Part shown: in pieces, positions 2,117 to 18,069 of the stretch
Numbering within the stretch: position 1 is the first letter of the stretch
Layout: each line of letters begins with the position of its first letter
Assembly: GCA_021806045.1 (NCBI GenBank)
Contig: JAJZDI010000007.1
Coordinates: 42,803 to 106,802, forward strand
Source of the DNA: Actinomycetes bacterium
Lineage (GTDB): Bacteria; Actinomycetota; Acidimicrobiia; Acidimicrobiales; RAAP-2
DNA length: 64,000 bases
Direction of reading: 5' to 3'
Program-made: the position numbers and the translations under genes
Notes under the pieces: model-generated
Database searches by the model: none
What the model saw: only the letters and a program-made list of their open reading frames with translations
What the model was told of the DNA's origin: nothing

Positions 2117-2165
2117 ACCTGACGTGCATCCGGGGCCGGCCGGCGATCGCGGGCGATCAGATCTG

Positions 2166-2235
2166 GTCCTGATTTCCGGACAGCCATTTCGTGTCCGGTA
2201 ATCAGGACTGAGGTCGCTTGTCCTGAAATCCGGAC
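2166..2235 (+). promoter_or_regulatory. Three GTCC-N8-GGAC operator-like boxes upstream of hipB
   Basis: GTCCTGATTTCCGGAC (2166-2181), GTCCGGTAATCAGGAC (2193-2208) and GTCCTGAAATCCGGAC (2220-2235) are spaced 27 bp centre to centre and end 1 nt before the hipB ATG. Confidence 0.6.
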
Positions 2236-2236
2236 C

Positions 2237-2509
2237 ATGTCACTATGTCTCGATATGGAGACATCCGATCCAGCCCCGCCCTCCGACGGGTCATACCGCG
2301 TCTACACCCCGGAATCCTTGGGCACAGCCATCCGCCACTACCGGACGGAAGCGGGACTCTCCCAGGCGCAGCTCGCCGAGGTTGCCGGGCTGAACCGGAC
2401 CTACCTGTCGAATCTCGAAAGCGGCAAGGAGACGGAGCAGGTCCGCAGGATCCTGCGGGTGCTCCGGCACCTCGGCGTGCGCATGACCTTGGAACAGGCG
2501 GAGTGGTAG
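2237..2509 (+). CDS. hipB: HipB-like XRE-family HTH antitoxin
   Basis: The HTH segment is GLSQAQLAEVAGLNRTYLSNLESGK. The stop TAG overlaps the GTG of the downstream HipA kinase. The start may instead be the in-frame ATG at 2255. Confidence 0.85.
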   Translation: MSLCLDMETSDPAPPSDGSYRVYTPESLGTAIRHYRTEAGLSQAQLAEVAGLNRTYLSNLESGKETEQVRRILRVLRHLGVRMTLEQAEW

Positions 2510-3747: not shown

Positions 3748-4270
3748 CCGACGACGCAGGCGACTGACGATCAGCGGCCGTCGCCATCGGCGATCGACAT
3801 GCTTCGCCGTCGTGATCTGATCCGGTAACACCCTCCTCGCCATCCGACTCCGTGTTCTCGTGTGGGGCAGCACCGGGTTGGTGACACCTGCGTCAGCGGG
3901 GCCACGCGTCGCCATCTGTTGTCCAGACCGAGGGCCTGACCAGCAGGCAGTTCCGGTACTCGGGGAATCCATTTCCCGGTCACGGTCGGCCCGGTGTGGG
4001 TGCACAGACGGCAGTCCTCGGATCGTGTGACCGGGGCCTCTCGGGAAGACCGCTCGCGAAGACGAGGTGCGGAACATCGAGCCCCTCTGGAACAAGCGCG
4101 CCCGCCCGTCCAATGTCGTACGCACTGAGCGCTCCCCTCGAGGACGGCGCGTCTGCGTCGAGCGAGGGCGCAACTCGACGTTCGTCGGGTGCAGGTGGGA
4201 CGGGCCGCTGCCGCCTCGGGCACGTTCATCTTCGAAGGTCCCGGCCCGCGCCATGAGGTCGGACGGCCGG

Positions 4271-5485
4271 TCAAGACGGTCCTGGGGCCTGGAGAAGCTG
4301 GCGGAGCCAGGTGTCCATCATGTCCCACTCGTGGGCCGCTGACCGGTAAGCGAACTCGATCATGCCGACGAAGAAGGCGATCATCGCCCCGGGGACCAAC
4401 ACCGCCGGCAGTGCGGTGGGCGAATGTCCCGATACCAGCTGGGACACCAGACCGATCGTCCCTCCGACGAAGAAGAGCGAAGCGAGCCCACCCCATATGG
4501 CGCTGAACACCGCTACGACCTCGAGTGGGCCCGTCGTGCCGACGAGCCAGGACCCCGGGCCGTTCACAGCGACCGCGCCCCGGAAGTTCCATCGCCACGA
4601 GTTGTTCAGACCGCTACGACAGACCAGGCGCACCTGCCACCCCGACACCTTCCCCGTGTAGATCGATCCTCCAACCCACGACATCATCCGTGTGGGCGCC
4701 AAATGCATACGCAACCGTTCAATGGCGTCAGCTGGAGGGAGAGGCGTCCACAATGCGTACTGTCGGCGCAACAGGCGGGACCTGATCCAACCCGTGACCT
4801 TTGCACCCAGCGTGCGCCTACCGGTCTGCGAGACGGCATCAGGCGGGGAGAGTGCCGTGGTGGTCGCCTTCGTGGTCAGATTGAAGCCGCCTTGCAGAGC
4901 TGCCGACTCCAGGCGATCGGGATCTGCGATGTTCACGAACGCCAGCTCGGGTCGTGCAAACCAATCGGCACCGGGCCAGCCAGTGCCTCGAAGCATGTCG
5001 GTCGGCATCGTTCCCGCACCGAGGAGTGCGCGAACCCCTCCGGGACGCTCGTGGCTCGACGGAAGCTTCCACACGGCGATTGCATGACCACCGCGCCGGC
5101 GCGTGACCGTCATCGGATCGGCCAGCGACGCCTCGCGCTTCACCCGGCGCCCAATGATCTCGACTGCACGCTGGTCAGTGAGTGCATAGCGGGTCCGGTG
5201 GAAGCGCCAGAGCTTCACGATGAACCGGCCAATGACCAGATAGGCGCCGACGACGAGGAACGGAAACGTGCTGAAATTTGGCACGGCAGATCCGCCATGA
5301 CGCGTGCTGAGCGCCACGGCCACGAAGAAGCCGGTCCAGACGATGCTCAGTGGAAGAAGGAACGCGTCCTGGGGGGCGAACACGACATGAGGATCGGGCC
5401 GACCTCGCCACGCGATCCACTCGCCGGGTCGCAGCCACGGGGCGTCGCCGGCTGATTCACCCCAGTCCCGCCAACTCCCCACCAT
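4271..5485 (-). CDS. Membrane protein with N-terminal bacterial PH-like (YdbS/YdbT-type) region
   Basis: 404-aa ORF with several hydrophobic segments and a TRYALTDQRAV motif after two TM helices. No function can be assigned. Confidence 0.6.
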   Translation of the reverse strand: MVGSWRDWGESAGDAPWLRPGEWIAWRGRPDPHVVFAPQDAFLLPLSIVWTGFFVAVALSTRHGGSAVPNFSTFPFLVVGAYLVIGRFIVKLWRFHRTRYALTDQRAVEIIGRRVKREASLADPMTVTRRRGGHAIAVWKLPSSHERPGGVRALLGAGTMPTDMLRGTGWPGADWFARPELAFVNIADPDRLESAALQGGFNLTTKATTTALSPPDAVSQTGRRTLGAKVTGWIRSRLLRRQYALWTPLPPADAIERLRMHLAPTRMMSWVGGSIYTGKVSGWQVRLVCRSGLNNSWRWNFRGAVAVNGPGSWLVGTTGPLEVVAVFSAIWGGLASLFFVGGTIGLVSQLVSGHSPTALPAVLVPGAMIAFFVGMIEFAYRSAAHEWDMMDTWLRQLLQAPGPS

Positions 5486-5613
5486 CCATCATCACGATAC
5501 CGGTCAGCCGGATCGTGTCCCAGCGCCCGGCACGCGTCGGAGCCACGTCGCGCTCCGTAGGTCGCACACCCGGTCGCCTGTGAGCAGATCGCGCCCCGAC
5601 CTAGCCTCATGGC

Positions 5614-6225
5614 ATGACGCCCGGCCACTCCCACGATCAACACGGCACCGGAGCTGACCCCTGCCCCGACCCCGGTGGCGACGATCGCGCCGGCGCCAAG
5701 ACTGGCGACCACGAGCTGAGCGTGCAGGAGCGCCTCTACCCCACGTTGACCTGCTTCGGCTGCGGCCACGCCAACCCCAAGGGGCTCAAGCTCCGCAGCT
5801 ACGAGGCCCCCACCTACAGCGCGGACGGCGCGGTCACCGGTCAGTTCATGCCGTGGCCCGAGCACGACAACGGCGTCGGGTTCCTGAACGGCGGGATCAT
5901 CGCCACCCTCCTCGACTGCCACAGCGCAGCCGCGGTGGTGCTGGAGGCGAGGCGCCAGGGGTGGGAGGCACTCGGCGGTGCACCGTTGGCCTTCGTCACG
6001 GCCGCCATCGACGTGCGCTACCTGCGCCCGTCGCCCCTCCACGAACCGGTCGAGCTGTGGGCTGCGGTGTCGCGGGCCACCGGGTCCGAGATGACCGTCG
6101 GCGTCGAGCTGCGCTTCGAGGAGAAGACGCGTGCGGCGGCCACGGCAACCTGGCGCCGGTGGCGACCGCGACCCGGACCGGGTCCGGGCGGGACGCCGCC
6201 TCCGGGAGCGCACGGCGCCGGTTGA
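5614..6225 (+). CDS. PaaI/hotdog-fold thioesterase
   Basis: CFGCG zinc-ribbon-like start is followed by GFLNGGIIATLLDCHSAAAV, typical of PaaI-family thioesterases. Confidence 0.7.
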   Translation: MTPGHSHDQHGTGADPCPDPGGDDRAGAKTGDHELSVQERLYPTLTCFGCGHANPKGLKLRSYEAPTYSADGAVTGQFMPWPEHDNGVGFLNGGIIATLLDCHSAAAVVLEARRQGWEALGGAPLAFVTAAIDVRYLRPSPLHEPVELWAAVSRATGSEMTVGVELRFEEKTRAAATATWRRWRPRPGPGPGGTPPPGAHGAG

Positions 6226-6254: not shown

Positions 6255-6815
6255 TCACTCGCCGGTCGCTGCGCGGCCCACCTCGGCACCGGCCAGGAAC
6301 GCCTCGATCTCGGCACGGCTGCGCAGGCGCACGAAGGTGAGATGGGCGCACGACGGCGCCGCCATCGCCTCCTCCAAACGTTGCCGGCGCTCGTCGAACG
6401 TGGTCCACGCCCACCGCACGACGGACCGTTCCGGGTCCCACCGCAGCAGACCGAGGACGGGCTCCCGGTTCCCGTTCCACAGTTCCTCACGGCGAAGGGC
6501 GCGCCGGAGGGTGCGCCACACCACCTGGCGCATGACCACGGCACGCGGTAGGTCGAGCCACACCACGGTGTCGGCGCGTGCCCAGACGGGGCCCTCGCCC
6601 ACCACCGCCCGGTAGTTCCCGTCGGCGACCCAGCCGGCAACCGACGTCGCGTCGTCGACGGCGGCGAGGAACGCGTTGGCGTCGGCCGGCTGCCAGCCGG
6701 GCCCGTGGAACAGTGCGTCGAGCTCGACGTGGGGGACGCCGAGCCGCCCGGCCAGCCTGCGGGCCACCGTGGTCTTCCCGGAGCCGGAGGTGCCCACCAC
6801 CGAGATGCGCCGCAC
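6255..6815 (-). CDS. AAA/adenylate-kinase-like P-loop ATPase (topology-modulation-protein-like)
   Basis: VRRISVVGTSGSGKTTVARRLA Walker A lies at the N-terminus. I chose the GTG at 6815 because the longer ATG (6926) would overlap the divergent gene. Confidence 0.7.
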   Translation of the reverse strand: MRRISVVGTSGSGKTTVARRLAGRLGVPHVELDALFHGPGWQPADANAFLAAVDDATSVAGWVADGNYRAVVGEGPVWARADTVVWLDLPRAVVMRQVVWRTLRRALRREELWNGNREPVLGLLRWDPERSVVRWAWTTFDERRQRLEEAMAAPSCAHLTFVRLRSRAEIEAFLAGAEVGRAATGE

Positions 6816-6942
6816 GCGACCATCATGCCGTTCGGGCTGCCGGTCGGGCTGCCGGACTACCGGGTAGGCGGGTGCCGGGCGCCGCCCGTGCCGTCCGGCC
6901 ACTACGGTGCGTGGCCATGGCGCCATCTGCCGGCCGCCGCCG

Positions 6943-9507
6943 ATGACCACCCATCCCCCCGCGAGCGATTCCGAGCGCGTCGCCGAGGGTGCCCCCGGGC
7001 CCGGCCCGAACAGCCCGAACAGCTCCGAGGGCGCGAGCGACGACCGGCGGGCGCTCCTCCGGGCCGCCCTCGACGCCCCCGACGAGTACCCCGCCGACCG
7101 GTTCTCCGGGCGCGGCATCGTCATCTGCGCCGGCGGGGCCCGCCTCATCACCGGCGCCTGGGTGACGATCAACGTCTTGCGCCGCACCCTCGGGTGCACC
7201 CTCCCCATCCAGGTGTGGCACCTGGGGACCGCCGAGCTGGGGCCGTTCGAACGGACCCTCTTCGAGGACCTGGGGGTGGAGGTCGTCGACGCGGCCGAAG
7301 TACGGCGGACCCACCCGGTCCGCCTCCTCGGGGGCTGGGAGCTCAAGCCCTACGCGCTGGCCCACTGCCGCTTCGCCGAGGTCCTCCTCCTCGACGCCGA
7401 CAACGTCCCCGCAGCCGACCCGACGCCCCTCTTCGACGCCTGGCAGCTGGACGAGGGGGGCGGTGCCGCCTTCTGGCCCGACGTCGAGCGCCTCACCGAG
7501 GCCAGCCCCATCTGGGACCTGGTCGGCCTCCCCTACCGGCCCGTCACCTCGTTCGAGACGGGCCAGGTCCTCCTACGCAAGGCGGACGTGTGGCACCCGC
7601 TGATGGTGGCCCTGCACCTGAACGCCCACTCCGACCTCTACTACCGGTACCTCAACGGGGACAAGGACACCTTCCTCTTCGCCTGGCTGCTCACCGGGCG
7701 CCGCTGGGCCATGCCCGGCACGCCCCCCCAGGTCCTCTCCCACACCGTCTACCAGCACGACTTCGAGGGACGGGTGACCTTCCAGCACCGGACCGGCGCC
7801 AAGTGGGTGCTGCGCGGCGACAACCGCGCCGAGCCCGGGTTCGCCCTCGAGGCCGAGTGCCTGGCCTACGTGCGTGAGCTCCGCGCCCTGTGGTCCGGGC
7901 GCATGGTCCGCATCCCCGAACGGTCCCCGGCCGCGCAGGACGCCGAACGTGTCCTGGCCACGACCCGGTGGTTCAGCTACGAGCGCCTCGGCGCCGACAC
8001 CCGGCTCCTCGAGCTCCGCAACGGCCACCGGGTCGGCCGGGGCTTCAGCCCGCACGAGCGTGCCTGGTATGTGGAGGATGGAACGGACGCCGGACCCGAT
8101 GAGCCTGATGGACCTGCTGGCGCCGACCCTGGCGGACCGGCCGGACCGCCGGCCGCGCTCCGGCTCGTCCTCCTCGGCGACGACAGCGTCACCTGCCGCC
8201 TCACCCCCGGCGACGACGGCACCTGGCGGGGAACCTGGGAGCACACACCTGGGTTCGAGGTGGAGCTCACCCCCGTGCACGAGGAAGCTGGCGTCGCTGG
8301 CGTCAATGGCAGCGCCGTTGGCACCGGCGGCGCGGTCGACATCGCCACCGGGAACGTCCCCGGCGCCAGCGGTCCCGTCCCCGGCGCACCGATGGAGGCA
8401 CCGACCCCGGTCGGCCTCGACACCGACCAGGTCCGCGGCCTGCTGGCCCACCTGTCGGCCGGCGGGCGCACCGGGGCCGAGCGTGACGCCATGGTCACCA
8501 CACTGGCCACCCTCGCCGGCGCCTTCCCCGGGCTCACCGCCCGGCTACGCCACGAGCTCACCCTGTGGGAGGCGAGAGGCGACGAGCTGGTGTGCGACGC
8601 CATCAGGGCCGCCATCGACGAGGCGGACCGGCAGGACGCCCGGGCCGGTACCCCGTCACTGCACGGGCGGCGCAACCCGGGGGCACGGCCCGAGGGGTCC
8701 CGGCCCGAGTGGCGCTACGAGCCCCTGCCCTCGCCCCCGGCGGCCACCGATCCCCGGGTGCTGGTGCTCACCCCGGTGAAGGACGCCGAAGAACACCTCG
8801 ACCGCTACTTCGAGCTGCTCGGCCGGCTCGACTTCCCGCCGGACCGCCTGTCGCTGGGCATCCTCGAAGGTGACAGCACCGATGGCACCTGGGCCGCCCT
8901 GACCGCCCGTCAGGGCGAACTGCGCCGCCGGTACCGCCGGGTGACGCTCCTCCGGCGGGACTTCGGGTTCCGGCTGCCGCCCGGCGTCCCCCGCTGGAAC
9001 CACGCCTTCCAGCTGGCCCGCCGGACGGTCCTGGCCCGGGCCAGGAACCACCTCCTCGTCGGTGCCCTGGGCGACGAGGACTGGGTCCTGTGGCTCGACG
9101 TGGACGTGTGCGACTACCCCCCGACCGTCCTCCGCGACCTGCTCGCCGCCGGCCGCGACATCGTCCAGCCCCACTGCGTGGTGGAGTACGGCGGGCCCAC
9201 GTTCGACTGGAACGCCTGGCGGGAGCACGGTCAGGTGCGGATGGACCAGCTGCGGGGCGGCCCCGACCTGATCCGCCTGGACGCCGTGGGCGGGACCATG
9301 CTCCTGGTGCGGGCGGACGCCCACCGCAACGGGCTCGTCTTCCCCCCCATGCTCTACGGCGGTGGGAGCCGGTGGGCGCGCGACCCCCACCCCGTGTTCC
9401 GTGCTCCGGGCGAGGTCGAGACGGAGGGCCTCGGGATCATGGCCAAGGACATGGGCTACGAGTGCTGGGGCATGCCCAACCTCGAGATCGTCCACGCCGA
9501 CCGGTGA
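6943..9507 (+). CDS. Bifunctional glycosyltransferase: GT71-like (Mnn1/Mnn2-type) N-domain fused to GT62-like (Mnn9/Anp1-type) C-domain
   Basis: The N-domain (~7108-7830) has GIVICAGG...[21 protein letters not shown] and GDKDTF. The C-domain (~8754-9504) has [45 protein letters not shown] and [26 protein letters not shown]. No signal peptide or TM segment is present. Confidence 0.75.
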   Translation: [854 protein letters not shown]

Positions 9508-9520
9508 CCGCCCCGGGCGC

Positions 9521-9568
9521 CCCGTCACCGGCCCGGACCGGACCCCGGTGACCGGACCGGACCGGACC
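9521..9568 (+). repeat. 2 x 24-bp tandem repeat in the spacer before the GT4 gene
   Basis: CCCGTCACCGGCCCGGACCGGACC is followed by CCGGTGACCGGACCGGACCGGACC, with a partial third unit that contains the GTG start at 9572. Confidence 0.7.
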
Positions 9569-9571
9569 GCG

Positions 9572-11017
9572 GTGAGCGGCTCCCGCCTCCTCTTCGTCAC
9601 CCCCGAGCCGCCCTCGGCCACCGGCGGGGGCCTGGCCATGCGGGCCGGCTCCGTCCTCGGCGCCCTGGCCGGTGCCGGGTGGGAGGTGCACGTCCTCGTC
9701 GTGCCGGTCCACGGGGACCGCCCCGGCGGCGGTGGGCCCCTGGTGACCCGGTTCGCGGCCGCCTACGACGTGCTCGACCTCGACGCGCTGGCTCCGGAGA
9801 GCCGCCGGCAGGCCGCCCTCGACGTGCTCGGTGACCCGGCCCTACGCCTGGCGCTCACCGCCACCTCCCCCCGACCGGCACCGTGCCGCCAGCTCGGTGG
9901 GGCCGTGGTCCGGGCCGTGACCGACCGTGCACTGGGCATGGGGCGGGAGGCAGGCGTCTCGTTCGACGCCGTCCACGTGCTGCGCCTGTACCTGGCACCG
10001 GTGCTCGACGCCCTGCTGGCCCGGCCCGACCGGCCGCAGATCACCCTGGACGTGGACGAGGACGACGCCTCCGTGGCCGGGCAGCTCCACGCGCTCGGGC
10101 GGGCGGGCGCCCGTGGCGGCCTCGTGCCCGCCGACCTGCCGGACCCGGGTGAGGACGCCGGCGACGCTCCCGCCTACGCCCCCGCCTACGAGCGCCTGCA
10201 GCGCTGGTACCTGCCCCGGGTGGACCGGGTGGCGGTGGCCAGCGCCGACGAGGCGGGCCGTCTCGAGGCCCGGTCCGGACTGGCCACCGGCACGATCGTG
10301 GTGGTGCCGAACGAGGTGCCGGCCACGGGTACGAGCACGGGTACGAGCACGGGTACGAGCACGGGTACGAGCACGGGTACGAGCACGGGTACGAGCACGG
10401 GTACGGGCACGGGCACGGGTACGGGCACGGCACCGGTCACCACCGACCTGCTGCTGGTGGGGAACTTCTCGTGGCCACCCAATGCCGACGCGGCGGTGGT
10501 CCTGTGCGACGCCGTCCGGCCCGCCCTGGCCGATGCCCTCGGCCGGCCGGTGACGGTGGCACTGGTGGGGAAGGACCCCCCGCCGGAGGTGCGTCGGCTC
10601 GGCGGGACCGCCGGGGTGACGGTGACCGGGTTCGTGGGCGACGTCGGCCCCTACTACGCTGCCGCCGGTGTGGCAGCCGTTCCCATGCGTGCCGGCGGTG
10701 GGTCCCGCATCAAGATCCTCGAGGCCATGGACCGCGGCGTCCCGGTGGTGACCACCGAGGCCGGAGCCGCCGGCCTCGACGCCGGCTCGACGCCACCGCC
10801 CGTCGTGGTGGCCCGCTCCGTCGAGGCCTTCGTCGACGGGTGCCGGCTGGTGCTGGACGATGCCGCCTGGCGCGCCCGCACGGTCCGGGCCGCCCGGCGC
10901 TGGGTGCGGGACCACCACGGTCCGCCGGCGGTGGCCACGGCCATGGGCGCCCTCGTCGGTGCCCCCGGGCGCAGGCCCCCCCGTCCTGCGGCGCGCAGAG
11001 GCAGCGATGACGGATGA
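9572..11017 (+). CDS. GT4-family (GT-B) glycosyltransferase with low-complexity (GTST)n hinge insertion
   Basis: LLFVTPEP...GGGLAMRA N-terminus. The C-domain has LLLVGNFSWPPN ... GGSRIKILEAMDRGVPVVTT (E-x7-E region). The GTG start is at 9572. Confidence 0.8.
   Translation: MSGSRLLFVTPEPPSATGGGLAMRAGSVLGALAGAGWEVHVLVVPVHGDRPGGGGPLVTRFAAAYDVLDLDALAPESRRQAALDVLGDPALRLALTATSPRPAPCRQLGGAVVRAVTDRALGMGREAGVSFDAVHVLRLYLAPVLDALLARPDRPQITLDVDEDDASVAGQLHALGRAGARGGLVPADLPDPGEDAGDAPAYAPAYERLQRWYLPRVDRVAVASADEAGRLEARSGLATGTIVVVPNEVPATGTSTGTSTGTSTGTSTGTSTGTSTGTGTGTGTGTAPVTTDLLLVGNFSWPPNADAAVVLCDAVRPALADALGRPVTVALVGKDPPPEVRRLGGTAGVTVTGFVGDVGPYYAAAGVAAVPMRAGGGSRIKILEAMDRGVPVVTTEAGAAGLDAGSTPPPVVVARSVEAFVDGCRLVLDDAAWRARTVRAARRWVRDHHGPPAVATAMGALVGAPGRRPPRPAARRGSDDG
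10325..10432 (+). repeat. In-frame 12-bp tandem repeat (GGTACGAGCACG x6, then GGTACGGGCACG-type variants)
   Basis: Six perfect units and then degenerate units are read directly from the sequence. They encode TGTSTGTSTGTSTGTSTGTSTGTSTGTGTGTGTGT between the two Rossmann halves of the GT4. Confidence 0.95.
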
Positions 11018-11342
11018 CGCCGCCGGCCTCGAGCGCCGGCCACGCAAGGTCCCCGACCTCGAGATCAGCCAGATCGTCGACGGCTACGTCGTGTACGACC
11101 CGGCCACCGACCGCATCCACTACCTGAACCACACGGCGTCCGTGGTCCTCGAACTGTGCGACGGCGAGCTGCCGGTCGACCGCATCGTCGACCTCGTCCA
11201 GGGCGCGTGGGACCTTCCCGAGCGGCCCGTCGACGAGGTCGAGGCGTGCGTGGCCCGGTTCGAGCGGGTGGGGCTGGTGGTCGACGCGGCACCACCGGAC
11301 CATGCCGATGACGGGCAGGCGGTGCCGGGCGACCCCGGATGA
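11007..11342 (+). CDS. PqqD-family (RRE-type) peptide chaperone
   Basis: 111 aa. The segment ISQIVDGYVVYDPATDRIHYLNHTASVVLELCDGELPVDRIVDLV...DEVEACVARFERVGLV matches the PqqD pattern. The gene overlaps the GT4 stop by 11 nt. Confidence 0.75.
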   Translation: MTDDAAGLERRPRKVPDLEISQIVDGYVVYDPATDRIHYLNHTASVVLELCDGELPVDRIVDLVQGAWDLPERPVDEVEACVARFERVGLVVDAAPPDHADDGQAVPGDPG

Positions 11343-12310
11343 CGGGGGTGGGGACGGCGGACCACCAGCCGATCGAGGTGCAGGTGCTGGGGGCGGCCAC
11401 CCGGCTGACCCTCGACCCATCGGTGGCCGGCGCTCTCCATCCCACCCTCGCCCTTGCCGCCCAGCGCGCACGCCAACCCGAGGCGGACCCGGCGTGGGAG
11501 GAGCTGCGTGCTGTTGCCGCCGCTCCCGGCGGCGGGGGAACGCTCCCGCTCCCGCTGTTCGCCCTGGAGCGGGAAGACGGCACCCGTCTCGCCAGCGGCG
11601 ACTCCATGACGCTGTTGAACGGCCTCCTGGCCGACGTCGAGGCCCGGGCCGCCGCCCGGGAGGGCGCCAGCGTGGTCGTGCGGGCCGGCTGCGTCCGCAT
11701 CGGCGACCGGCGTGTCGTCCTCACCGGCTGGGGGGCGCCGGGGGTGACCACCGTGCTGCTGGCCCTCGGGCGCCGTGGCCACGTGCTCGAGACCGACAGC
11801 CAGCTGTTCCTGGCTGTGGGTGGGCTCAGTGCGGTGACGCGTCGGTTCCTGGTACGGCGCCACGCCGTCGACGTCCTCGACTGGCTGGACCCGGTGCTGG
11901 CGGCGACACCGTGGCTCCAGAACCGGGCCGGCGAGACGGTCCACACCGTGGACCCCACCGCGTTCGGCATGGACTGGGAGGCGGGGCGGGGTCCCGTCGA
12001 CGCCGTCGTCGAACTGGAGGGCAACCACGGCGGCTCCAACCGGCTCCGACCCCGGTCCCGGTGGGAGGCGGTCCGGGCCCTCGCCGACCGGGCCCGCGAT
12101 CCGGCGGGTGGGCCCGGCGGGTCCCCGGCCCAGTGGCTCGGCCAGCTGTGCTCGGTGGTCGATCGGGCCCAGTGCCTGCGGCTCACGGTGGGCGATGCCG
12201 ACGGTGCGGCGACCCTCCTGGAGGAGGCGCTCTCGCAGGATCCGGCCGCGCCGACCGGCATGCACGGGCGGATCTTCGGTAGTGTGCACCAGATCGACCA
12301 AGGGGGGTAG
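11339..12310 (+). CDS. HPr-kinase-related (HprK-like) protein with degenerate P-loop
   Basis: VVVRAGCVRIGDRRVVLTGWGAPGVTTVLLALGRRGHVLETD is colinear with the HprK-like ...hAs.v...g..vll.G.sG.GKST.al.L...G..l.sD pattern. It has an ATGA overlap with the PqqD gene. Confidence 0.6.
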   Translation: MTGVGTADHQPIEVQVLGAATRLTLDPSVAGALHPTLALAAQRARQPEADPAWEELRAVAAAPGGGGTLPLPLFALEREDGTRLASGDSMTLLNGLLADVEARAAAREGASVVVRAGCVRIGDRRVVLTGWGAPGVTTVLLALGRRGHVLETDSQLFLAVGGLSAVTRRFLVRRHAVDVLDWLDPVLAATPWLQNRAGETVHTVDPTAFGMDWEAGRGPVDAVVELEGNHGGSNRLRPRSRWEAVRALADRARDPAGGPGGSPAQWLGQLCSVVDRAQCLRLTVGDADGAATLLEEALSQDPAAPTGMHGRIFGSVHQIDQGG

Positions 12311-12586
12311 GTGTCCGACGACGAGCTCGACAGGGAACTGCTCAAGCGGGTCCCGATGGACCGGAGGGAATTCGTCCGGCGGGCGGTGATCGGGGCCGCG
12401 TTCGCCGTGCCCGTGGTGGCATCGTTCGCTGCCGGCGAGCTGGCGGGCGGCCACCGGGCGTCGGCCACCCCCGAGCCTGCGTTCGCATCGAACCAGGAGG
12501 TCCCCCCGCTCGACATGCCCATCCTCGGTCATCGGGGCTACATCCCCTACGCCTACCACCCCTACCAGGTCGGCCTGGATGACTGA
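12311..12586 (+). CDS. Small secreted protein with twin-arginine signal peptide
   Basis: The GTG start follows the upstream TAG directly, with AAGGGGGG 5 nt upstream. The Tat motif is DRREFVRRAVIGAAFAVPVVASFA. The mature part (~50 aa) ends in a His/Tyr/Pro-rich tail. Confidence 0.6.
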   Translation: MSDDELDRELLKRVPMDRREFVRRAVIGAAFAVPVVASFAAGELAGGHRASATPEPAFASNQEVPPLDMPILGHRGYIPYAYHPYQVGLDD

Positions 12587-13799
12587 TGCGGACGGCTCGG
12601 TGCTGCTCAGCGCGGCACTGATCGTCCGCGACGAGGCCGAGCACCTTCCCGGCTGCCTGGCATCGTTGCACGAGCTCGTCGACGAGATCGTCGTCGTCGA
12701 CACCGGCTCCACCGACGGGTCCGCGGGCATCGCCGCGTCGGCCGGCGCACGCGTGTCCGACGTGCCCTGGAGCGGCGACTTCTCCGCCGCCCGCAACGCG
12801 GCGCTGGACCGGTGCCGGGGCACGTGGATCCTCTACATCGACGCCGACGAGCGGGTGCGCGCCGGCACGGCCGCCGCCACCCGGCAGGTGCTCGAGACGA
12901 GCGACGCGCTGGGCCTGCTGGTCGGCTTCACCCCGGCGACCGGGTTCACCTGGTACCGGGAGTGCCGCCTGTTCCGCAACGACCCCGCCATCCGGTTCGA
13001 GCGCCCCATCCACGAGCGGGTGGTGCCGGCCATCGAACGTCTCGGCCGCGCCCGACCGGGCACCGCCGCCACCGGGCCGGGCAGCGTGCCTGGCACCGGT
13101 CTCACCGGCGGGGCCGTGTGGGGGAGGGCCCCGCTCCACCTCGACCACCTCGGCTACGACAACGACCGGCCGGCCCGGCACCGCCGTGACCTCCCCCTGC
13201 TGGAGGGCGAGCTGGCCCGCCGGCCAGGCGACGTGTCGACCTGGTACCGCCTGGGCGTGGCCCGGGCCGGGCTCGGCGACGACCGCGGCGCCGAGGAGGC
13301 ATGGCGGCAGGGCGCCCGGGCGTCGGCGGACGAGGGCGACACCCACCCGCTGGGCGGCATGTGCCTGGTCGAGCTGGTGCGCCTGTGCGTGGAGCGGGGG
13401 GAGGACCCCGCCGGCCTGCTGGCCGGCGCCACCGCCCGGTTCCCCCGCAACCGGCTGCTCGTCTGGCAACGGGCCCGCCACCAGTTGGCGACCGGCGACC
13501 CGCGGCGTGCGGCCGACCTGTTCGCCGGCCTGGCCGCCACCGATCTGGAGGCCCTTGCCGGCGAGGGACTCGCCTACGACGCCCGCCTGTTCGGGTCGTG
13601 GGCGCACGACGGAGCCGGTGCGGCCGCGTTCGCGCTGGGCGACTACGAGGCGGCTGCCGCCGCGTACGCGGCGGCGGAGGCGGCCGAGCCGGGGGTGCTC
13701 GGCTACCGGGTGAAGCGGGTGGCCGCGGCCCGCCGGGCCGGGGCGGTCCGGTCGCACCCGGGGAGTACAGCGATGGTTCCGACGAGGAGGGCAGGCTGA
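12579..13799 (+). CDS. GT2 (GT-A) glycosyltransferase fused to a C-terminal TPR-like helical domain
   Basis: LSAALIVRDEAEHLPGCLAS...VVVDTGSTDGS...ILYIDADE. The Ala/Leu-rich TPR-like C-terminal half follows. The gene overlaps the upstream gene by 8 nt and the downstream gene by 1 nt. Confidence 0.8.
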   Translation: MTDADGSVLLSAALIVRDEAEHLPGCLASLHELVDEIVVVDTGSTDGSAGIAASAGARVSDVPWSGDFSAARNAALDRCRGTWILYIDADERVRAGTAAATRQVLETSDALGLLVGFTPATGFTWYRECRLFRNDPAIRFERPIHERVVPAIERLGRARPGTAATGPGSVPGTGLTGGAVWGRAPLHLDHLGYDNDRPARHRRDLPLLEGELARRPGDVSTWYRLGVARAGLGDDRGAEEAWRQGARASADEGDTHPLGGMCLVELVRLCVERGEDPAGLLAGATARFPRNRLLVWQRARHQLATGDPRRAADLFAGLAATDLEALAGEGLAYDARLFGSWAHDGAGAAAFALGDYEAAAAAYAAAEAAEPGVLGYRVKRVAAARRAGAVRSHPGSTAMVPTRRAG

Positions 13800-16700
13800 T
13801 GGGTTGGGGTACCGGAGCAGTCCGGGAGGGCGGCACCAGGCCGCCGTTCCTGCGCCGGGTGGTGGTCGCCGCCGTGGCCGGTTCGGTCGTCGGCGCCGCC
13901 GTCTTCGCCACCGTGGCCACCACGTCACACGGTCCGTCGGCGACCTCAGCGGGGTCGGGGGCGCCGTCGGGCGCAGCCCACGCCACCACGGCGAGCGTGA
14001 CGACCAGGCTGGCCACCCTCCCGCTGGCCTTCGCCCAGGGCACCACGGCGACGCCCAGCTACGTGGCCGGGGCCCCCGGCTACGACGTACAGGTCACCCC
14101 GGACCAGGTCGACCTGGCCGTCATCCGGGGAACCGGGCAGGGTGGGACGGGCACGCCGGCGCCGCGGACGGGGACCGCCCCTTCAGCGCCCACCGGTACC
14201 GCCACCAGCCAGGTCGGCCTCGACCTGGTCGGGGCCGACCCCGCCGCCCGGTTGTCCACCCAGGGCGCCCTGCCCGGGCACGTGAACATGTTCGTGGGAC
14301 CGCGCCAGTCGTGGCGCTCCGACCTGCCCACCTACTCCACCGTGGTGGCCCACGACGCCTGGCCGGGCGTCGACGTGCGCTACGCCGGTAGCAGCGGCAA
14401 CCTCGAGTACTCCCTGACGGTGGCACCCGGAGCCGACCCGTCGATCGCCCGCATGCGGCTCACCGGGGTGACCGGCCTGCACGTCGACAGCCGGGGTGAC
14501 CTGGTCGGCCAGTCGGCCGCGGGGCCGGTGACCGAGCGGTCCCTCAGCGCCTGGCAGGTGGTCGGTGGCCACCGACATGCGGTGCCGGCCTCCTACCGCC
14601 TGCAGGGCACGACCGTCTCGTTCCAGGTGGGCTCCTACGACCGGAGCCGGCCGCTCATCATCGACCCGACGGTGGTGACGGGCTACGCCACCTACCTGTC
14701 GGGCGGCCCGCTGTCCGAGGTCCTCGGCCTGGCCACCGACCAGGCCGGGAACACCTTCGCCGTCGGGTTCATCGGTGCCCCCGGGTTGGCCCCGACCTAC
14801 GGAGGCGGGCTCACCGACGCCTTCGTCACCGAGCTCGACCCGACCGGCACCCACGCCCTCTTCTCCACCTACCTCGGCGGCATCGGCGAGGACGTGGCCA
14901 CCGCCGTCGCCCTCGGCCCATCGGGGTCGATCTACGTGGCCGGCTACACCGACTCCCCCGACTTCCCCATCGTCGGCGGCACGCGCAAAACCAACGACAA
15001 CAACACGGTCTTCGGCGCCGAGAACGACGGCTTCCTCACCGTGCTCGCCGCCGGCGGGAGCAGCATCGACGCCTCCACCCTCATCGGCGGGTCGGGTGAG
15101 GACGAGATCGAGGCCCTCGCCGTCGACGCCGCCGGCAACGCCCACATCGCCGGGCTCACCACGTGGAACGACTTCCCCGGCATGGGCGGCACGGCGGGCA
15201 CGTACCAGGACTTCAACACGGCCTACCTCTACACGAGGGGCGGTTCTTATGCCAAGAACTCGTTCGCCTTCGTGGCCACCGTGGACGACAGCGCCAGCGG
15301 GCTCGTCCTCGGCCCGGTCACCAACCTCGGCAATGAGTTGCACATCGAGGTTGACGCCCTCACCCTCGACAGTTCGGGTGACGCCTTCGTGGCTGGAGGA
15401 TCCTCCGCCACGCTGGCGACGGTCGGCGGGGCCTACTCGGGGAGCACGAACAACAACTACAACAAGGACGGCGGGTTCGTGGCCGAGGTGGCACCGACCG
15501 GCAGCGTGACCTGGCTGGCGTGGATGGGCCCGGCCATGCAGCTCTACGGCATCACCCTCGACGCGGCCGGCAACGTCGACGTGGTCGGGGCGGCCTACCC
15601 CGGCCTGGCCACCACCACGGGCGTCGTCGATCCGACGGACACCACAGGCGGGCCCCAGGCCATGGCCGCCTCGCTCTCACCGAACGGGGCCACCCTCCGG
15701 TGGGCCACCTACCTCGGTGGCACCAACGGCACCTCCGAGGCCGACGCCGTCGTCGTGGCACCGGACGGCTCCCTGCTGGTGGCGGGGGGGACGGCGTCCA
15801 CCAGCGGTGTGGCCACCGCCGGGGCGCCGCAGGTCACCTACGGCGGAGGATCCTCCGACGCGTTCCTCGTCGACCTGGCACCGGACGCCACCTCCGTCAA
15901 TTGGGGCACCTACCTCGGAGGTCCGGGCGCCGACTGGGCCATGTCGATGAGCCCCGTTCCCGGCGGGGTGGCAATCGGCGGACTGGCCTCGCCGCCGTCC
16001 TTCCCGGTCACCGCGGGGAGCCTGCAGACGACCCCCTCCGGATCCCAGTACGGCTTCGTCGCCGACGTGCTGGTGGCGCCCACGGTGACCTCGGTGTCGC
16101 CGGCCTCCGGGCCGGCCACCGGTGGCACCACCGTCACCGTGAACGGAACCGGGTTCACCGGTGCCACCGCCGTGCACGTGGGTGCGGCTGCCGCTTCCTT
16201 CACGGTGGTGTCGGACACGCAGCTGACCGCCACCGTGCCGCCCGGTTCGATCGGGACCGTGGACGTGACCGTCACCGGCCCCGGCGGCACCAGCGCCACC
16301 GCCACGGGGGACCACTTCACCTACGTGGCCAGCGGCTACCGCCTGGTCGCCGCCGACGGGGGGGTGTTCGCCTTCGGGAGCGACCGCTTCGCCGGGTCGT
16401 GCCCAGCGGCGGGCTCGGTGTGCAGTGGCGTGTCCGACATCGTCGGCACGGCCGCCACCCCCGACGGCACGGGCTACTGGCTGGTGGGGGCGGACGGCGC
16501 CGTCTACCCGTTCGGCACCGCCGCCTCCTACGGGTCGATGGCCGGGCACCACCTCGACAAGCCGATGGTCGGCATGGCCGCCACCCCGGACGGTAAGGGC
16601 TACTGGCTGGTGGCCGCCGACGGCGGGGTGTTCGCCTTCGGTGACGCCGCCTACGCCGGGTCGATGGGCGGCACCCACCTGGACGCGCCGGTGGTGGGCA

Positions 16701-17122
16701 TGGTCGCCACTCCCGGTGGCACGGGCTACTGGCTGGTGGGGGCCGACGGCGGGGTGTTCGCCTTCGGGACCGCCCGCTATGCCGGATCGTGCCCGGCGCC
16801 GGGCTCGGTGTGCAGTGGCGTGTCCGACATCGTCGGCGCGGCCGCCGCCCCCGTTGGCACGGGCTACTGGCTGGTGGGAGCGGACGGCGCCGTCTACCCG
16901 TTCGGCACCGCCGCCTCCTACGGATCGATGGCCGGGCACCACCTCGACAAGCCGATGGTCGGCATGGCCGCCACCCCCGACGGCAAGGGCTACTGGCTGG
17001 TGGCCGCCGACGGCGGGGTGTTCGCCTTCGGCGACGCCACCTTCGCCGGGTCGGAAGGCAGCACCCACCTGGACGCGCCGGTGGTGGGTGTGGCCACGCC
17101 GGCGGTCCGGCTCGCCGGCTGA
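13799..17122 (+). CDS. Large (1107-aa) cell-surface protein: signal/anchor, SBBP-type beta-propeller repeats, IPT/TIG domain, C-terminal GYWLV-DGGVF-FG repeat propeller
   Basis: N-terminal hydrophobic segment VVVAAVAGSVVGAAVFATVA. Motifs of the type DAFV(T/A)(E/K)L...STYLGG recur. The IPT-like segment is PTVTSVSPASGPATGGTTVTVNGTGF. About 9 C-terminal ~40-aa repeats follow. ATG 13799 overlaps the upstream TGA. Confidence 0.8.
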   Translation: MGWGTGAVREGGTRPPFLRRVVVAAVAGSVVGAAVFATVATTSHGPSATSAGSGAPSGAAHATTASVTTRLATLPLAFAQGTTATPSYVAGAPGYDVQVTPDQVDLAVIRGTGQGGTGTPAPRTGTAPSAPTGTATSQVGLDLVGADPAARLSTQGALPGHVNMFVGPRQSWRSDLPTYSTVVAHDAWPGVDVRYAGSSGNLEYSLTVAPGADPSIARMRLTGVTGLHVDSRGDLVGQSAAGPVTERSLSAWQVVGGHRHAVPASYRLQGTTVSFQVGSYDRSRPLIIDPTVVTGYATYLSGGPLSEVLGLATDQAGNTFAVGFIGAPGLAPTYGGGLTDAFVTELDPTGTHALFSTYLGGIGEDVATAVALGPSGSIYVAGYTDSPDFPIVGGTRKTNDNNTVFGAENDGFLTVLAAGGSSIDASTLIGGSGEDEIEALAVDAAGNAHIAGLTTWNDFPGMGGTAGTYQDFNTAYLYTRGGSYAKNSFAFVATVDDSASGLVLGPVTNLGNELHIEVDALTLDSSGDAFVAGGSSATLATVGGAYSGSTNNNYNKDGGFVAEVAPTGSVTWLAWMGPAMQLYGITLDAAGNVDVVGAAYPGLATTTGVVDPTDTTGGPQAMAASLSPNGATLRWATYLGGTNGTSEADAVVVAPDGSLLVAGGTASTSGVATAGAPQVTYGGGSSDAFLVDLAPDATSVNWGTYLGGPGADWAMSMSPVPGGVAIGGLASPPSFPVTAGSLQTTPSGSQYGFVADVLVAPTVTSVSPASGPATGGTTVTVNGTGFTGATAVHVGAAAASFTVVSDTQLTATVPPGSIGTVDVTVTGPGGTSATATGDHFTYVASGYRLVAADGGVFAFGSDRFAGSCPAAGSVCSGVSDIVGTAATPDGTGYWLVGADGAVYPFGTAASYGSMAGHHLDKPMVGMAATPDGKGYWLVAADGGVFAFGDAAYAGSMGGTHLDAPVVGMVATPGGTGYWLVGADGGVFAFGTARYAGSCPAPGSVCSGVSDIVGAAAAPVGTGYWLVGADGAVYPFGTAASYGSMAGHHLDKPMVGMAATPDGKGYWLVAADGGVFAFGDATFAGSEGSTHLDAPVVGVATPAVRLAG
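16391..17038 (+). repeat. Near-identical ~258-bp direct duplication (16391-16648 and 16781-17038) inside the surface-protein gene
   Basis: The two copies differ at only about a dozen positions by eye. The period is 390 bp, equal to 130 codons. Confidence 0.9.
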
Positions 17123-17181
17123 GCCCAGCGGGTCCGGGAACGTGCCGCCACCGACCGGACCGGCTCCCCGCCACGGGCACC

Positions 17182-18069
17182 ATGACCGCAGTGACAGGTG
17201 AACCATGGGCTGTGGACGCTGCCGCGCCCATCCGACCGTCGGACAGGACCGGTGCGCCGTTCCTCGAGCCCGTCGTCGACGTGGACACCCACGTGGGACC
17301 GCTCCTGCTCCCGGCCGGCGACGGCATCATCACCCGCGCCCTGCAGGACTACGGGCTGTGGGAGAGCCAGGAGACCGCCTACCTCATCATGACGCTCCTG
17401 CCCGGCCAGACGTTCGTGGACATCGGGGCCCACGTCGGCTACTTCAGCGTCCTCGCCTCCAAGCGGGTCGGCCCCACCGGGAGGGTGATCGCCTTCGAGC
17501 CCGAGGCACGCAACCTGGACCTGTTGGAGCGGAACCTCTGGCGCAACGGGTGCGACAACGCGGCGGTCGTGCCGTACGCGTGCTCCGACCGCCCGCAGGA
17601 CCTGTCCCTCGTCCTCATCGAGGAGAACCGAGGGGCACACCACCTGGTGCCGGCGGGGCAGGGGGACGTGCCCGTCCGGTGCGTCCGTCCCGACGACGTC
17701 CTGTCCGGAACCGTCGACGTGGTGAAGATCGACGCCCAGGGCTACGACCACGAGGTGGTCGCCGGGCTGCGTCGGACGTGGACCGCCTGCCCGGACCTGG
17801 AGATGCTGGTGGAGCTGTCGTACACCGAGCTCGACCGGCGAGGCATCGAACCCCTGGACGTGCTCACCGGCTACGAGGAGCTCGGGTTCGAGCTGGCCAT
17901 CTTCGACGCCGGCGGCAACCTCACGGTCATGCCGGCCGAGGCGGTCGACGTCGTGTGCCGTGCCCGCAAGCAGTCGGACTTCACGGTCATCCTGCGTCGG
18001 CGGGAGCGCGAGGTCCGTGGGGAGGATGACGTACGGCACGCGCCCTCGCCCGCTGGGGGCGACCGGTGA
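17182..18069 (+). CDS. FkbM-family SAM-dependent methyltransferase
   Basis: FVDIGAHVGYFS SAM-binding motif, then VIAFEPEARN and VDVVKIDAQGYDHEV, typical of FkbM-family enzymes. Confidence 0.8.
   Translation: MTAVTGEPWAVDAAAPIRPSDRTGAPFLEPVVDVDTHVGPLLLPAGDGIITRALQDYGLWESQETAYLIMTLLPGQTFVDIGAHVGYFSVLASKRVGPTGRVIAFEPEARNLDLLERNLWRNGCDNAAVVPYACSDRPQDLSLVLIEENRGAHHLVPAGQGDVPVRCVRPDDVLSGTVDVVKIDAQGYDHEVVAGLRRTWTACPDLEMLVELSYTELDRRGIEPLDVLTGYEELGFELAIFDAGGNLTVMPAEAVDVVCRARKQSDFTVILRRREREVRGEDDVRHAPSPAGGDR

Follow-up and report, generated by a model that had tools for sequence, protein, structure and literature searches.

GT62 and GT71 glycosyltransferases have been studied as fungal Golgi enzymes. 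The present locus raises the question of whether a bacterium makes relatives of both as one soluble polypeptide and, if so, what such a protein would act on. The window analyzed was a 64,000-nucleotide stretch of contig JAJZDI010000007.1 from a soil Actinomycetes bacterium, and a sequence-only reading had proposed that one of its genes encodes an unusual mannan synthase. Related loci are cited below by the letter L and a number.

Reading frame and solubility of the fusion protein

The fusion glycosyltransferase gene was located at 6943..9507 on the plus strand of the window, whose DNA is 75% GC. It is the first gene of a co-directional, translationally coupled plus-strand array, as expected from the proposal that it opens an operon; the upstream gene, encoding a P-loop kinase-like protein (6258-6830), lies on the opposite strand. 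The open reading frame (6907..9507, +) would give 866 residues from its first GTG or 854 residues from the ATG at 6943; the public protein P0242 corresponds to the 854-residue form with 100% identity, and P0001 has the same length. A search of the fusion protein against NCBIfam returned no family. The GC3 of the reading frame was 0.74-1.0 in each 50-codon block, indicating a single coding frame throughout.

A fusion created by mis-assembly or frameshift, or one in which a domain has decayed to a non-catalytic remnant, is extremely improbable. Although the usual arrangement is two separate genes and the linker includes stretches that are of low complexity and poorly conserved, the identical GT71-GT62 architecture recurs in many assemblies made independently of one another and across four divergent groups, the high GC3 runs unbroken through the linker, and the linker includes a conserved helical element. 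An assembly artefact was therefore rejected from the independent assemblies, the four groups, and the continuous GC3. Both DxD motifs and the C-terminal histidine, described below, are intact as well, with conservation of at least 95%.

In a 19-residue Kyte-Doolittle scan the mean peaked at 1.56, where the N-terminal glycosyltransferase fold has its first beta-strand. By this measure there was no hydrophobic segment for type II Golgi topology, and the AlphaFold model of the fusion contained no membrane helix, in agreement with the earlier description of a protein lacking transmembrane and signal sequences; the protein is bacterial and cytoplasmic. Type II Golgi topology and M-Pol assembly are traits of the fungal members and lie outside the CAZy definition of GT62. 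The AlphaFold model (pTM 0.60) was uninformative on the relative placement of the two active sites.

The GT71-like and GT62-like modules

Both domains of the chain scored above their Pfam thresholds, had intact DxD motifs, and matched the folds of Mnt2 and Mnn9, and the motifs quoted in the sequence-only reading (GIVICAGG, FWPD, ETGQVLL, GDKDTF, and WVLWLDVDV among them) were all present in the translation. The N-terminal module matched PF11051 (Mannosyl_trans3; E 3.5e-23, 82.8 bits, cutoff 22) in two stretches from aa 56, and the scores of its homologs reach 250 bits. Its GT-A catalytic domain, aa 45-320 (7075..7902, +), was covered by 105 standalone bacterial homologs and was modeled with pLDDT >90. 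In its DxD motif, D151-A-D153(-N154) at 7393-7404 (+), the residues D151, A152, D153, and N154 were at least 95% conserved among 106 sequences. A PDB sequence search with the N-terminal module alone gave no match, and yeast Mnt2 was reached only by fold: Foldseek aligned the domain with Mnt2 (7xjv) at E ~1e-10 over ~298 columns with 16-17% identity.

The catalytic domain is followed by a conserved helix plus beta-rich extension, aa 321-445 (7903..8277, +), containing a low-complexity insert at aa 381-405. This extension was covered by 88-100% of the standalone ~500-residue homologs and had pLDDT >90 except in the insert. When aa 318-570 were folded separately and compared with the PDB, the best match had E 0.025, to small beta-barrels, and none was significant. 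A linker of ~280 residues had been proposed, but aa 321-445 belong to the conserved bacterial GT71-like module, and the linker private to the fusion is only ~155 residues long (aa 446-602; 8278..8748, +); standalone GT71-like or GT62-like homologs cover almost none of it. It consists of a disordered part (446-493), a four-helix segment (494-567; 8422-8643), and a second disordered part (568-602); pLDDT is 75-93 across the helices and falls below 50 at 449-490 and 568-600. In three orthologs the helical part was 64% invariant and free of gaps, and aa 446-493 were just 28% invariant, with indels.

The C-terminal GT-A catalytic domain, aa 603-854 (8749..9504, +), matched PF03452 (Anp1) with E 3e-43 and 148.6 bits (cutoff 28.8) in two stretches over aa 600-854. 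In a PDB sequence search with the fusion protein, the sole meaningful match was yeast Mnn9 (3zf8, E 3.4e-17), and the fold comparison matched the same structure with a TM score of 0.67 (E 2e-16). Colinearity with Mnn9 was upheld by the alignment to 3zf8, which pairs WVLWLDVDV with wvlwlNadi of Mnn9 and the other quoted stretches with those running from gvgggctl to gamfp and from etegfakm to nylvyh. The DxD motif D719-V-D721 (9097-9105, +) and His851 (9493-9495, +) were at least 95% conserved at D719, D721, and H851 in 118 bacterial homologs and align with N236(D), D238, and H389 of Mnn9; D236, D238, and H389 of Mnn9 are Mn2+ ligands (PMC9769593). Both active sites of the fusion look functional.

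Distribution and origin of the fusion

The earlier view of these families as largely eukaryotic did not hold. An exhaustive search yielded 4,874 representatives at 50% identity, 1,076 of them at E<=1e-30, and word-indexed searches found >1,000 GT71-like and >2,000 GT62-like bacterial clusters at 90% identity. Most bacterial homologs are encoded by separate genes, GT71-like proteins having ~500 residues and GT62-like proteins ~250. The fusion itself is rare (three clusters at 50% identity), and no source gives it a functional name. GT71-GT62 fusions formed four groups, and each group was more closely related to unfused proteins than to any of the other three. The fusion appears to have arisen several times. 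PF03452 was found only in fungi in a 153-genome survey (PMC5225481), and a bacterial homolog has served as the outgroup of a tree (PMC9769593), the sole mention found in the literature; searches on bacterial GT62 and GT71 otherwise returned nothing relevant. Recent transfer from fungi was considered unlikely, since identity with Mnn9 is only ~23%, the GC3 of 0.93 is as in the host genome, and thousands of divergent homologs occur in several bacterial phyla.

Genes downstream of the fusion

The fusion gene is followed by genes that, from 9548 to 13799, are joined by stop/start overlaps. The GT4 glycosyltransferase gene (9548..11017, +; start GTG 9548 or 9572) matched PF13692 (2.6e-21) and scored 99.6 bits, under the cutoff, with the stp1-like family TIGR03087. 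It holds an internal (TGTS)n repeat, a 12-nt unit present 9.6 times at 10324-10437, and is conserved beside the fusion or a GT62 gene in L001, L002, L004, L005, and L007-L010. A PqqD-family protein of the peptide-binding RRE type is encoded at 11007..11342 (+; PF05402, 30.5 bits, cutoff 23.4), and the start of its gene shares 11 nt with the end of the GT4 gene. The following gene (11339..12310, +), which has an ATGA overlap with the PqqD gene, encodes a protein that we assign only weakly, from its sequence, as HprK-related-kinase-like. A Pfam scan of this protein found nothing, and in the PDB a profile search picked up a mixture of P-loop proteins, including four HPr kinase entries (E 0.025-0.07). 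With TIGR04352 (cutoff 200) it scored 11.9 bits (E 0.09), and its L005 ortholog 31 bits (1.3e-7). Its P-loop is degenerate (GWGAPGVTT), with loss of the Walker A lysine; in the alignment the GxxxxGKTT motif is intact in the proteins of L005, L009, and L010. The PqqD protein scored 22.5 bits with TIGR04353 (HPr-rel-A PqqD; cutoff 35), so that neither neighbor reached its HPr-rel-A equivalog cutoff, and the pair would be at best a distant relative of that system.

The next reading frame, at 12311..12586 (+), encodes an unnamed protein of 91 residues, in which a leader of twin-arginine type precedes a variable tail. Its leader contains the conserved DRREFVRR and AVIGAAFAVPVVASF, and its tail contains AFASN. 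Orthologs were found in L001, L002, L003, L005, L007, L009, and L010, and the family comprises at least 125 unnamed clusters with a conserved N-terminal part and a hypervariable tail. An asparagine follows the AxA site in 113 of 120 tails. N-x-S/T sequons numbered 84 in the tails, compared with 45.6 +/- 6.0 in shuffles, a test that overstates significance because the tail sequences are related; a true sequon occurs in just about half of the tails. All four look-ups that took the peptide as their starting point led to the cassette, in one case next to TatC. A RiPP-type layout, namely a conserved leader and variable core beside PqqD/RRE and tailoring enzymes, was found at 12 loci, which include the four reached from the peptide side.

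The glycosyltransferase encoded at 12579..13799 (+) combines a GT2 domain (PF00535, 8.5e-15) with a TPR match. Its nearest PDB sequences were GmaR (8.5e-25), SunS (1.3e-10), and the ThuS-type 7msk (3.1e-7), solved relatives that act directly on proteins or peptides, and the GT2-TPR protein is a candidate initiating protein or peptide glycosyltransferase. It is followed by a large protein with DUF7948, SBBP, and TIG domains by Pfam (13799..17122, +), which has an N-terminal hydrophobic anchor or signal and a Ser/Thr-rich stretch; GAGGAGGG precedes its ATG at 13799, which overlaps the stop of the GT2-TPR gene. An FkbM-family methyltransferase gene (17150..18069, +, start approximate; PF05050, 3.5e-14) comes next, and both of these genes are kept in L001 and L002.

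With the cassette chemistry unchanged, the large secreted surface protein at 13799-17122 might itself be the acceptor, with the small ORF a membrane-anchored or regulatory accessory, a reading that we judge quite improbable. In the window, L001, and L002, the gene after that of the GT2-TPR enzyme encodes a large protein of secreted type and overlaps the GT2-TPR stop with its start, and L007 and L008 likewise have such proteins behind the cassette; in L003 the small-ORF leader heads a ~340-residue Ig-repeat protein; and GmaR, the nearest solved relative of the GT2-TPR enzyme, glycosylates flagellin, a full-size protein. However, these large proteins come from unrelated families and are missing in L005, L009, L010, L012, and L015, in all of which the small leader ORF is present, and the large protein of the window lacks the conserved leader.

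Conservation and composition of the cassette

The cassette was found across phyla with 43-53% protein identity, also in unfused form. Its invariant core consists of the PqqD protein, the HprK-like protein, the leader peptide, and the GmaR/SunS-like GT2-TPR enzyme, the last present in all cassettes examined, and an NTP_transf_5 gene occurs in many related loci. Modules are joined in varied ways: L003 has a PqqD-GT62 fusion and a GT4-GT2TPR fusion, in L007 GT4 is fused to PqqD, and in L014 GT62 is fused to FkbM. Together with the GT71-GT62 fusions, this recurrent joining supports functional coupling of the cassette modules. A GT10 takes the place of GT71 in L010, and neither GT62 nor GT71 accompanies the core in L012 and L015; these two families are swappable accessories of the core. 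Two ABC exporters and TatC lie upstream of the cassette in L012. Literature searches on the HprK-related kinase, on PF14907 with PqqD, and on RRE with glycosyltransferase and TPR found nothing relevant.

These loci bear on the proposal of a soluble mannan synthase, in which GT62 would polymerize an alpha-1,6 backbone, GT71 would add alpha-1,2/1,3 branches to a free or envelope-bound polysaccharide, and the GT4, GT2, and methyltransferase would be further polysaccharide enzymes. The family assignments equal those of the yeast backbone and branching enzymes (PMC5225481), and L004 encodes a GH38 alpha-mannosidase close to the fusion gene. Exopolysaccharide loci, too, commonly and typically carry a stp1-like GT4 and an FkbM methyltransferase, and this counts against a peptide-directed system. 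Other bacterial proteins join GT62, GT71, GT34, and GT32 without a PqqD context, such as a GT32-GT2-GT62 protein of Azospirillum with no PqqD nearby; GT62 thus occurs outside the cassette, and the module is therefore not exclusive to peptide glycosylation. The two-GT-A polymerases K4CP, LARGE1, and the chondroitin synthases were among the distant fold matches, but with rmsd >16 A, so that the resemblance goes no further than having two GT-A domains. Against a mannan synthase, moreover, the ORFs scanned at 1-31 kb of the window included no family of initiating polyprenyl-phosphate glycosyltransferases, of Wzx/Wzy (flippase or polymerase), or of ABC exporters, and the genes listed for the cassettes in L005, L007-L010, and L013-L015 include none for a polysaccharide lipid carrier or export. 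The invariant partners are instead a peptide binder, a leader peptide, and a GmaR/SunS-like enzyme, and the cassette can drop or replace GT62 and GT71. We consider this mannan synthase rather unlikely.

Proposed function

The conserved neighbors suggest that the fusion decorates a small exported peptide and not free cell-wall mannan. We give about equal weight to belief and to doubt in the proposal that it is a bifunctional, metal-dependent accessory enzyme that extends glycans in a cytoplasmic, peptide- or protein-directed glycosylation system and not a stand-alone polysaccharide synthase. The order of action, peptide acceptor, Tat route, sugar, and linkage would then be as follows. The PqqD-type protein would bind the conserved leader of the small ribosomal peptide or, in some genomes, of a larger protein with the same leader, and the GmaR/SunS-like GT2-TPR enzyme would put the first sugar on the variable tail. 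The HprK-like protein, and the NTP_transf_5 protein where present, may prime or modify the site; as a precedent, PsmK and PsmN of pseudomycoidin, a kinase and a nucleotidyltransferase homolog, make a phospho-glycan on a ribosomal peptide (PMC9266682). GT4, GT62, and GT71 would extend the glycan in sequence, the GT62 and GT71 additions being, by analogy with yeast, alpha-linked mannose from GDP-mannose. The twin-arginine-type leader, from whose motif a Tat route is inferred, would send the finished glycopeptide to export.

A more specific proposal, which we offer tentatively and think doubtful, is that the cassette represents an undescribed leader-directed class of ribosomally encoded glycopeptides or glycoproteins. 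A glycan placed in the cytoplasm at or next to the conserved Asn, frequently within N-x-S/T, would be extended before Tat export by bacterial relatives of GT62 and GT71 and, in other genomes, of GT32 and GT34, families that make the outer chain of yeast N-glycans. If this were true, a great store of the "fungal" mannan toolkit, and perhaps its source, would lie in bacteria, whose mannan-type enzymes would already act on polypeptide-linked glycans. If the enzymes instead add ordinary sugars to an exopolysaccharide, the locus would be a modest extension of known glycosyltransferase diversity. Soluble bacterial GT62 and GT71 proteins are abundant, are repeatedly fused together and to PqqD, and belong to a conserved operon that also encodes a candidate peptide substrate. 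They offer a membrane-free, tractable system for GT62/GT71 chemistry, what may be a new family of ribosomal peptides bearing glycans, and a data set on the origin of the yeast outer-chain mannan machinery.

Comparison with known systems

The GT62-like domain shares with yeast Mnn9, Van1, and Anp1, the subunits of M-Pol I and II, the GT-A fold, the Mn2+-site DxD and His, and a colinear catalytic domain. Mnn9 is its nearest PDB match by both sequence and fold, yet identity is only ~23%. In contrast to the yeast GT62 enzymes, it has no N-terminal anchor or Golgi stem, is a soluble module of ~250 residues that is cytoplasmic and not lumenal, and is fused to or lies beside GT71-like, GT4, and PqqD partners. 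With yeast Mnn1, Mnn2, Mnn5, and Mnt2-4 (GT71), the N-terminal module has in common the Pfam match, the invariant DADN, and the Mnt2-like GT-A fold, but the fusion is soluble and has a bacterial-specific beta-rich extension of ~125 residues without a structural relative. E. coli K4 chondroitin polymerase, LARGE1, and CHSY/CHPF share only the generic layout of two GT-A domains and two linkages; their families differ, the rmsd is as given above, and the long, partly disordered linker of the fusion gives no sign of a fixed tandem active-site geometry.

The catalogued HPr-rel-A system (TIGR04352 and TIGR04353) likewise has a PqqD protein followed by an HprK-related protein. However, the P-loop in the window is degenerate and both proteins score below the cutoffs, and the cassette adds four glycosyltransferase modules and a leader peptide, a combination not found in the literature. 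Putative leader recognition of the PqqD type is shared with the glycocin and flagellin-type cytoplasmic glycosyltransferases and the pseudomycoidin lasso peptide system, whereas the cassette has no lasso cyclase, protease, or glycocin-type Cys-rich core, and its leader resembles a twin-arginine signal. SunS, ThuS, and GmaR share a GT2 plus helical-repeat enzyme acting directly on a polypeptide, and PsmK/PsmN of pseudomycoidin share a kinase and nucleotidyltransferase homolog that tailor a ribosomal peptide. Unlike these SunS- and PsmK-type systems, the cassette has up to four more glycosyltransferase domains, which would make an oligosaccharide and not a single sugar.

Family assignment and active sites of the GT71-GT62 fusion protein

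The fusion ORF (6907..9507, +) was open for 866 codons, and translation from the ATG at 6943 gave a product of 854 aa; the public homolog P0001 also has this length, and P0242 is 100% identical to the product. The GC content around the locus was ~75%, with a strong third-position GC bias. In the Pfam search, the N-terminal part of the protein matched PF11051 (Mannosyl_trans3; E 3.5e-23, 82.8 bits, cutoff 22) and the C-terminal part matched PF03452 (Anp1; E 3e-43, 148.6 bits, cutoff 28.8), and a GT2 match within the Anp1 region was secondary only (26.6 bits); no NCBIfam model matched. The presence of GT71-like and GT62-like domains in one polypeptide, proposed in the sequence-only reading, was therefore confirmed. 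All motifs quoted in that reading were found in the translation, and their correspondences to yeast Mnn9 were recovered in the alignment with 3zf8 (E 3.4e-17), the sole meaningful solved relative by sequence in the PDB.

The D151-A-D153-N154 motif of the GT71-like domain was at least 95% conserved among 106 sequences, as were D719-V-D721 and H851 of the GT62-like domain among 118 sequences, and the active sites of both domains are intact. D719, D721, and H851 aligned to three Mn2+ ligands of Mnn9 (PMC9769593), namely position 236 (wild-type Asp, replaced by Asn in the crystal), D238, and H389. An AlphaFold model built from an 88-sequence alignment (mean pLDDT 83.7) contained two confident GT-A domains and a helix plus beta-rich extension. 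In a Foldseek search of the PDB, the Mnn9 structure 3zf8 ranked first (E 2e-16, target-normalised TM 0.67); the model also matched yeast Mnt2 (7xjv, ~1e-10), an alpha-1,3-mannosyltransferase encoded by one of the PF11051 genes of S. cerevisiae. Six genes of this yeast carry PF11051 (PMC5225481).

Domain boundaries, linker, and solubility

To define the domain boundaries, bacterial homologs that occur as standalone proteins (105 GT71-like, 117 GT62-like) were mapped onto the fusion protein. The GT71-like module consisted of a catalytic domain (aa 45–320) and a conserved extension (aa 321–445) interrupted by a low-complexity insert, so that aa 45–445 represented an entire widespread bacterial protein of ~500 aa, and aa 603–854 represented another of ~250 aa. 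Because the standalone homologs span these two regions, the linker private to the fusion is aa 446–602, or ~155 aa rather than the ~280 aa proposed earlier. In the model, the linker was disordered at 449–490, formed a four-helix segment at 494–567, and was again disordered at 568–600. Among three Actinomycetes orthologs the helical segment was gap-free and 64% invariant, and aa 446–493 were variable with indels; GC3 was 0.74–1.0 throughout the linker. The middle region, folded separately, had no significant structural relative in the PDB. The hydrophobicity maximum of the protein (Kyte-Doolittle mean 1.56 in 19-residue windows) was located at the first beta-strand of the N-domain. Since no window exceeded this value and the peak lay in a beta-strand, the protein was judged to be soluble, in agreement with the earlier statement that it lacks a transmembrane or signal sequence.

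Distribution of the fusion among bacterial homologs

A word-indexed search with the full protein gave 1,033 matches, and among the best 120 of these both Pfam families occurred in twelve 90% clusters (P0001–P0011 and P0048), the remainder of the 120 being PF11051-only proteins of about 500 aa. With the C-domain alone there were 2,033 matches, the best 120 of which were nearly all PF03452-only proteins of ~250 aa with 63–72% identity to the window's domain. An exhaustive search covering 1.84 billion representatives (50% identity) yielded 4,874 proteins at a threshold of E<=1e-3, of which 1,076 reached E<=1e-30. Named sources of homologs included Solirubrobacteraceae, Chthoniobacteraceae, Saprospiraceae, and Actinomycetota. 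PF03452 was restricted to fungi in a 153-genome survey (PMC5225481); despite that survey, the large search counts refuted, in sequence space, the view that GT62 and GT71 are largely eukaryotic families. The fusion itself was rare: GT71-GT62 fusions in the exhaustive search were only P0007, P0269, and P0270, whereas P0266 and P0267 were GT71-GT71 and other proteins had one module joined to GT8, methyltransferase, or HEAT repeats. No functional name for the GT71-GT62 fusion was present in any source examined.

The fused proteins fell into four groups. The window's GT62 domain showed 70–72% identity to unfused proteins, compared with 62–68% to fusion groups B and C and 52–54% to group D, and the nearest neighbour of group C outside the group was an unfused protein, P0156. 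Because fused proteins were closer to unfused relatives than to other fusion groups, these distances suggest that the fusion may have arisen several times independently. Families of the yeast outer-chain pathway are repeatedly combined in bacterial multi-GT proteins; P0268 was GT9 + GT71 + GT34, and GT62 modules also occurred outside the cassette described below, as in WP_014189957.1 (789 aa; PF04488 (GT32) + GT2 + GT62) on plasmid AZO_p6 of Azospirillum lipoferum 4B, a cultured organism (locus L011, 7381–9750), with no PqqD cassette nearby. PF04488 is the Och1/Hoc1 family, GT32 (PMC5225481).

Gene organization of the cassette

Upstream of the fusion gene was a divergent P-loop kinase-like gene (6258–6830). 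The downstream genes shared the strand (+) of the fusion gene, most of them overlapping at their stop and start codons, and encoded a GT4 (PF13692), a PqqD-family protein (PF05402, above cutoff), a 323-aa protein weakly related to HprK-related kinase A (11339–12310), a small ORF of 91 aa (12311–12586), a GT2 + TPR protein, a 1,107-aa DUF7948/SBBP/TIG protein (13799–17122) whose start codon overlapped the GT2-TPR stop, and an FkbM methyltransferase. The N-terminus of the DUF7948/SBBP/TIG protein was MGWGTGAVREGGTRPPFLRRVVVAAVAGSVVGAAVFATVA, followed by a Ser/Thr/Ala/Gly-rich stretch. A 24-nt tandem repeat (9501–9580, 3.5 copies) covered the fusion stop codon and the likely GT4 start (GTG 9548 or 9572), and a 12-nt repeat in the GT4 gene (10324–10437, 9.6 copies, 93% matches) encoded (TGTS)n, which may be a length-variable inter-domain linker. 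The distant flanks held a HipA-family toxin kinase gene (2245–3747, +) and a ParE-family toxin gene (24196–24768, -); GC was about 67% at 1–6000 and 74–76% over the cassette.

When related loci in other genomes (L-numbers) were compared, the gene order was kept in two Actinomycetes MAGs and also around fusion homologs of just 46–53% identity (L005 and L007). GT62 and GT71 were separate genes in the cassettes of L008 and L009, and a GT10 gene stood in for GT71 in L010. Module fusions recur across cassettes: in L003, a Solirubrobacterales MAG, a PqqD-GT62 fusion (9551–10759, +) followed by a GT4 + GT2-TPR fusion (10752–13079, +) joined the window's modules in another way, and GT4-PqqD and GT62-FkbM fusions occurred in L007 and L014, respectively. 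The match of the 323-aa protein to HprK-related kinase A had an E-value of 0.09, compared with 1.3e-7 for its L005 ortholog, and HPr-kinase matches in the PDB were weak. The Walker A lysine was lost in the window, L001, L002, L007, and L008 (GWGAPGVTT), and GxxxxGKTT was kept in L005, L009, and L010; the protein of the window lineage may be a pseudo-kinase or scaffold. No published description of the conserved cassette was found in the searchable literature.

The small leader ORF as a candidate substrate

The small ORF of the window encoded VSDDELDRELLKRVPMDRREFVRRAVIGAAFAVPVVASF..., followed by a tail with AFASN and GHRGY. Orthologs occupied the equivalent position in L001 (15346–15618), L002 (15356–15628), L005 (5879–6061), L007 (5089–5364), L009 (13265–13465), and L010 (13468–13644). 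In L003, the shared N-terminal element headed a ~340-aa Ig-repeat protein (8647–9672, -), whose gene lay upstream of the PqqD-GT62 gene and was oriented the other way. A profile search placed at least 125 unnamed clusters in the family, mostly of 57–100 aa. In 88 of 120 members, RR/KR-x-[FW..]-[ILV]-[RKQ] preceded a mildly hydrophobic AF..P.V.SF segment, and in many an AxA site came next and led into a short tail of variable sequence; at the motif level, this pattern would correspond to a twin-arginine signal. An Asn followed the AxA site in 113 of 120 tails, in the context A-[Y/F]-[G/A/V]-[S/P]-N. The tails contained 84 N-x-S/T sequons, whereas 2,000 shuffles that preserved composition gave 45.6 +/- 6.0 and at most 66, and four control tripeptide classes were not enriched relative to shuffles. 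Because the small-ORF sequences are related, this excess is a lead and no proof. Two members, P0527 and P0528, had tandem PNQ[ST] repeats.

Four family members on long contigs were used as starting points, and each lay with a PqqD gene on one side and a GT2(-TPR) gene on the other. The invariant core therefore has four components: PqqD, the HprK-like protein of ~290 aa, the leader peptide, and GT2-TPR. NTP_transf_5 often accompanied this core, with GT4, GT62, GT71, GT10, and GT32 as variable additions. L012 (1527–5943), one of the four loci reached in this way, contained a minimal cassette of PqqD, a ~290-aa protein, the peptide, GT2-TPR, and NTP_transf_5 without GT62 or GT71, and TatC and two ABC exporters lay a few genes upstream, a single case that agrees with peptide export. 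The small-ORF family is a candidate substrate of the cassette.

Proposed role of the fusion protein

The sequence-only reading took the fusion for a backbone-plus-branch mannan synthase. The window ORFs scanned included no member of the Wzx/Wzy, polyprenyl-phosphate transferase, or ABC exporter families, and the absence of these lipid-carrier and export families makes synthesis of a free mannan less likely. The earlier observation of the fusion was confirmed and its interpretation partly supported. The most plausible role of the fusion protein is that of a bifunctional enzyme that extends glycans within a peptide- or protein-directed cytoplasmic glycosylation cassette. The sugar donated, the linkage formed, the residue that accepts it, and the route of export are all inferences. 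The DUF7948/SBBP/TIG protein is a possible alternative target of glycosylation. A GH38 alpha-mannosidase gene (L004, 4364–6490, -) lay near the Chthoniobacteraceae fusion gene, a weak hint at mannose as the sugar handled there.

The GT2-TPR protein had its closest relatives of solved structure in GmaR (8.5e-25), followed by the S-glycosyltransferases SunS and ThuS, all of which are cytoplasmic enzymes that act directly on protein or peptide. Tailoring of a ribosomal peptide has a precedent in pseudomycoidin, in which a kinase and a nucleotidyltransferase homolog make a phospho-hexose decoration on the peptide (PMC9266682).
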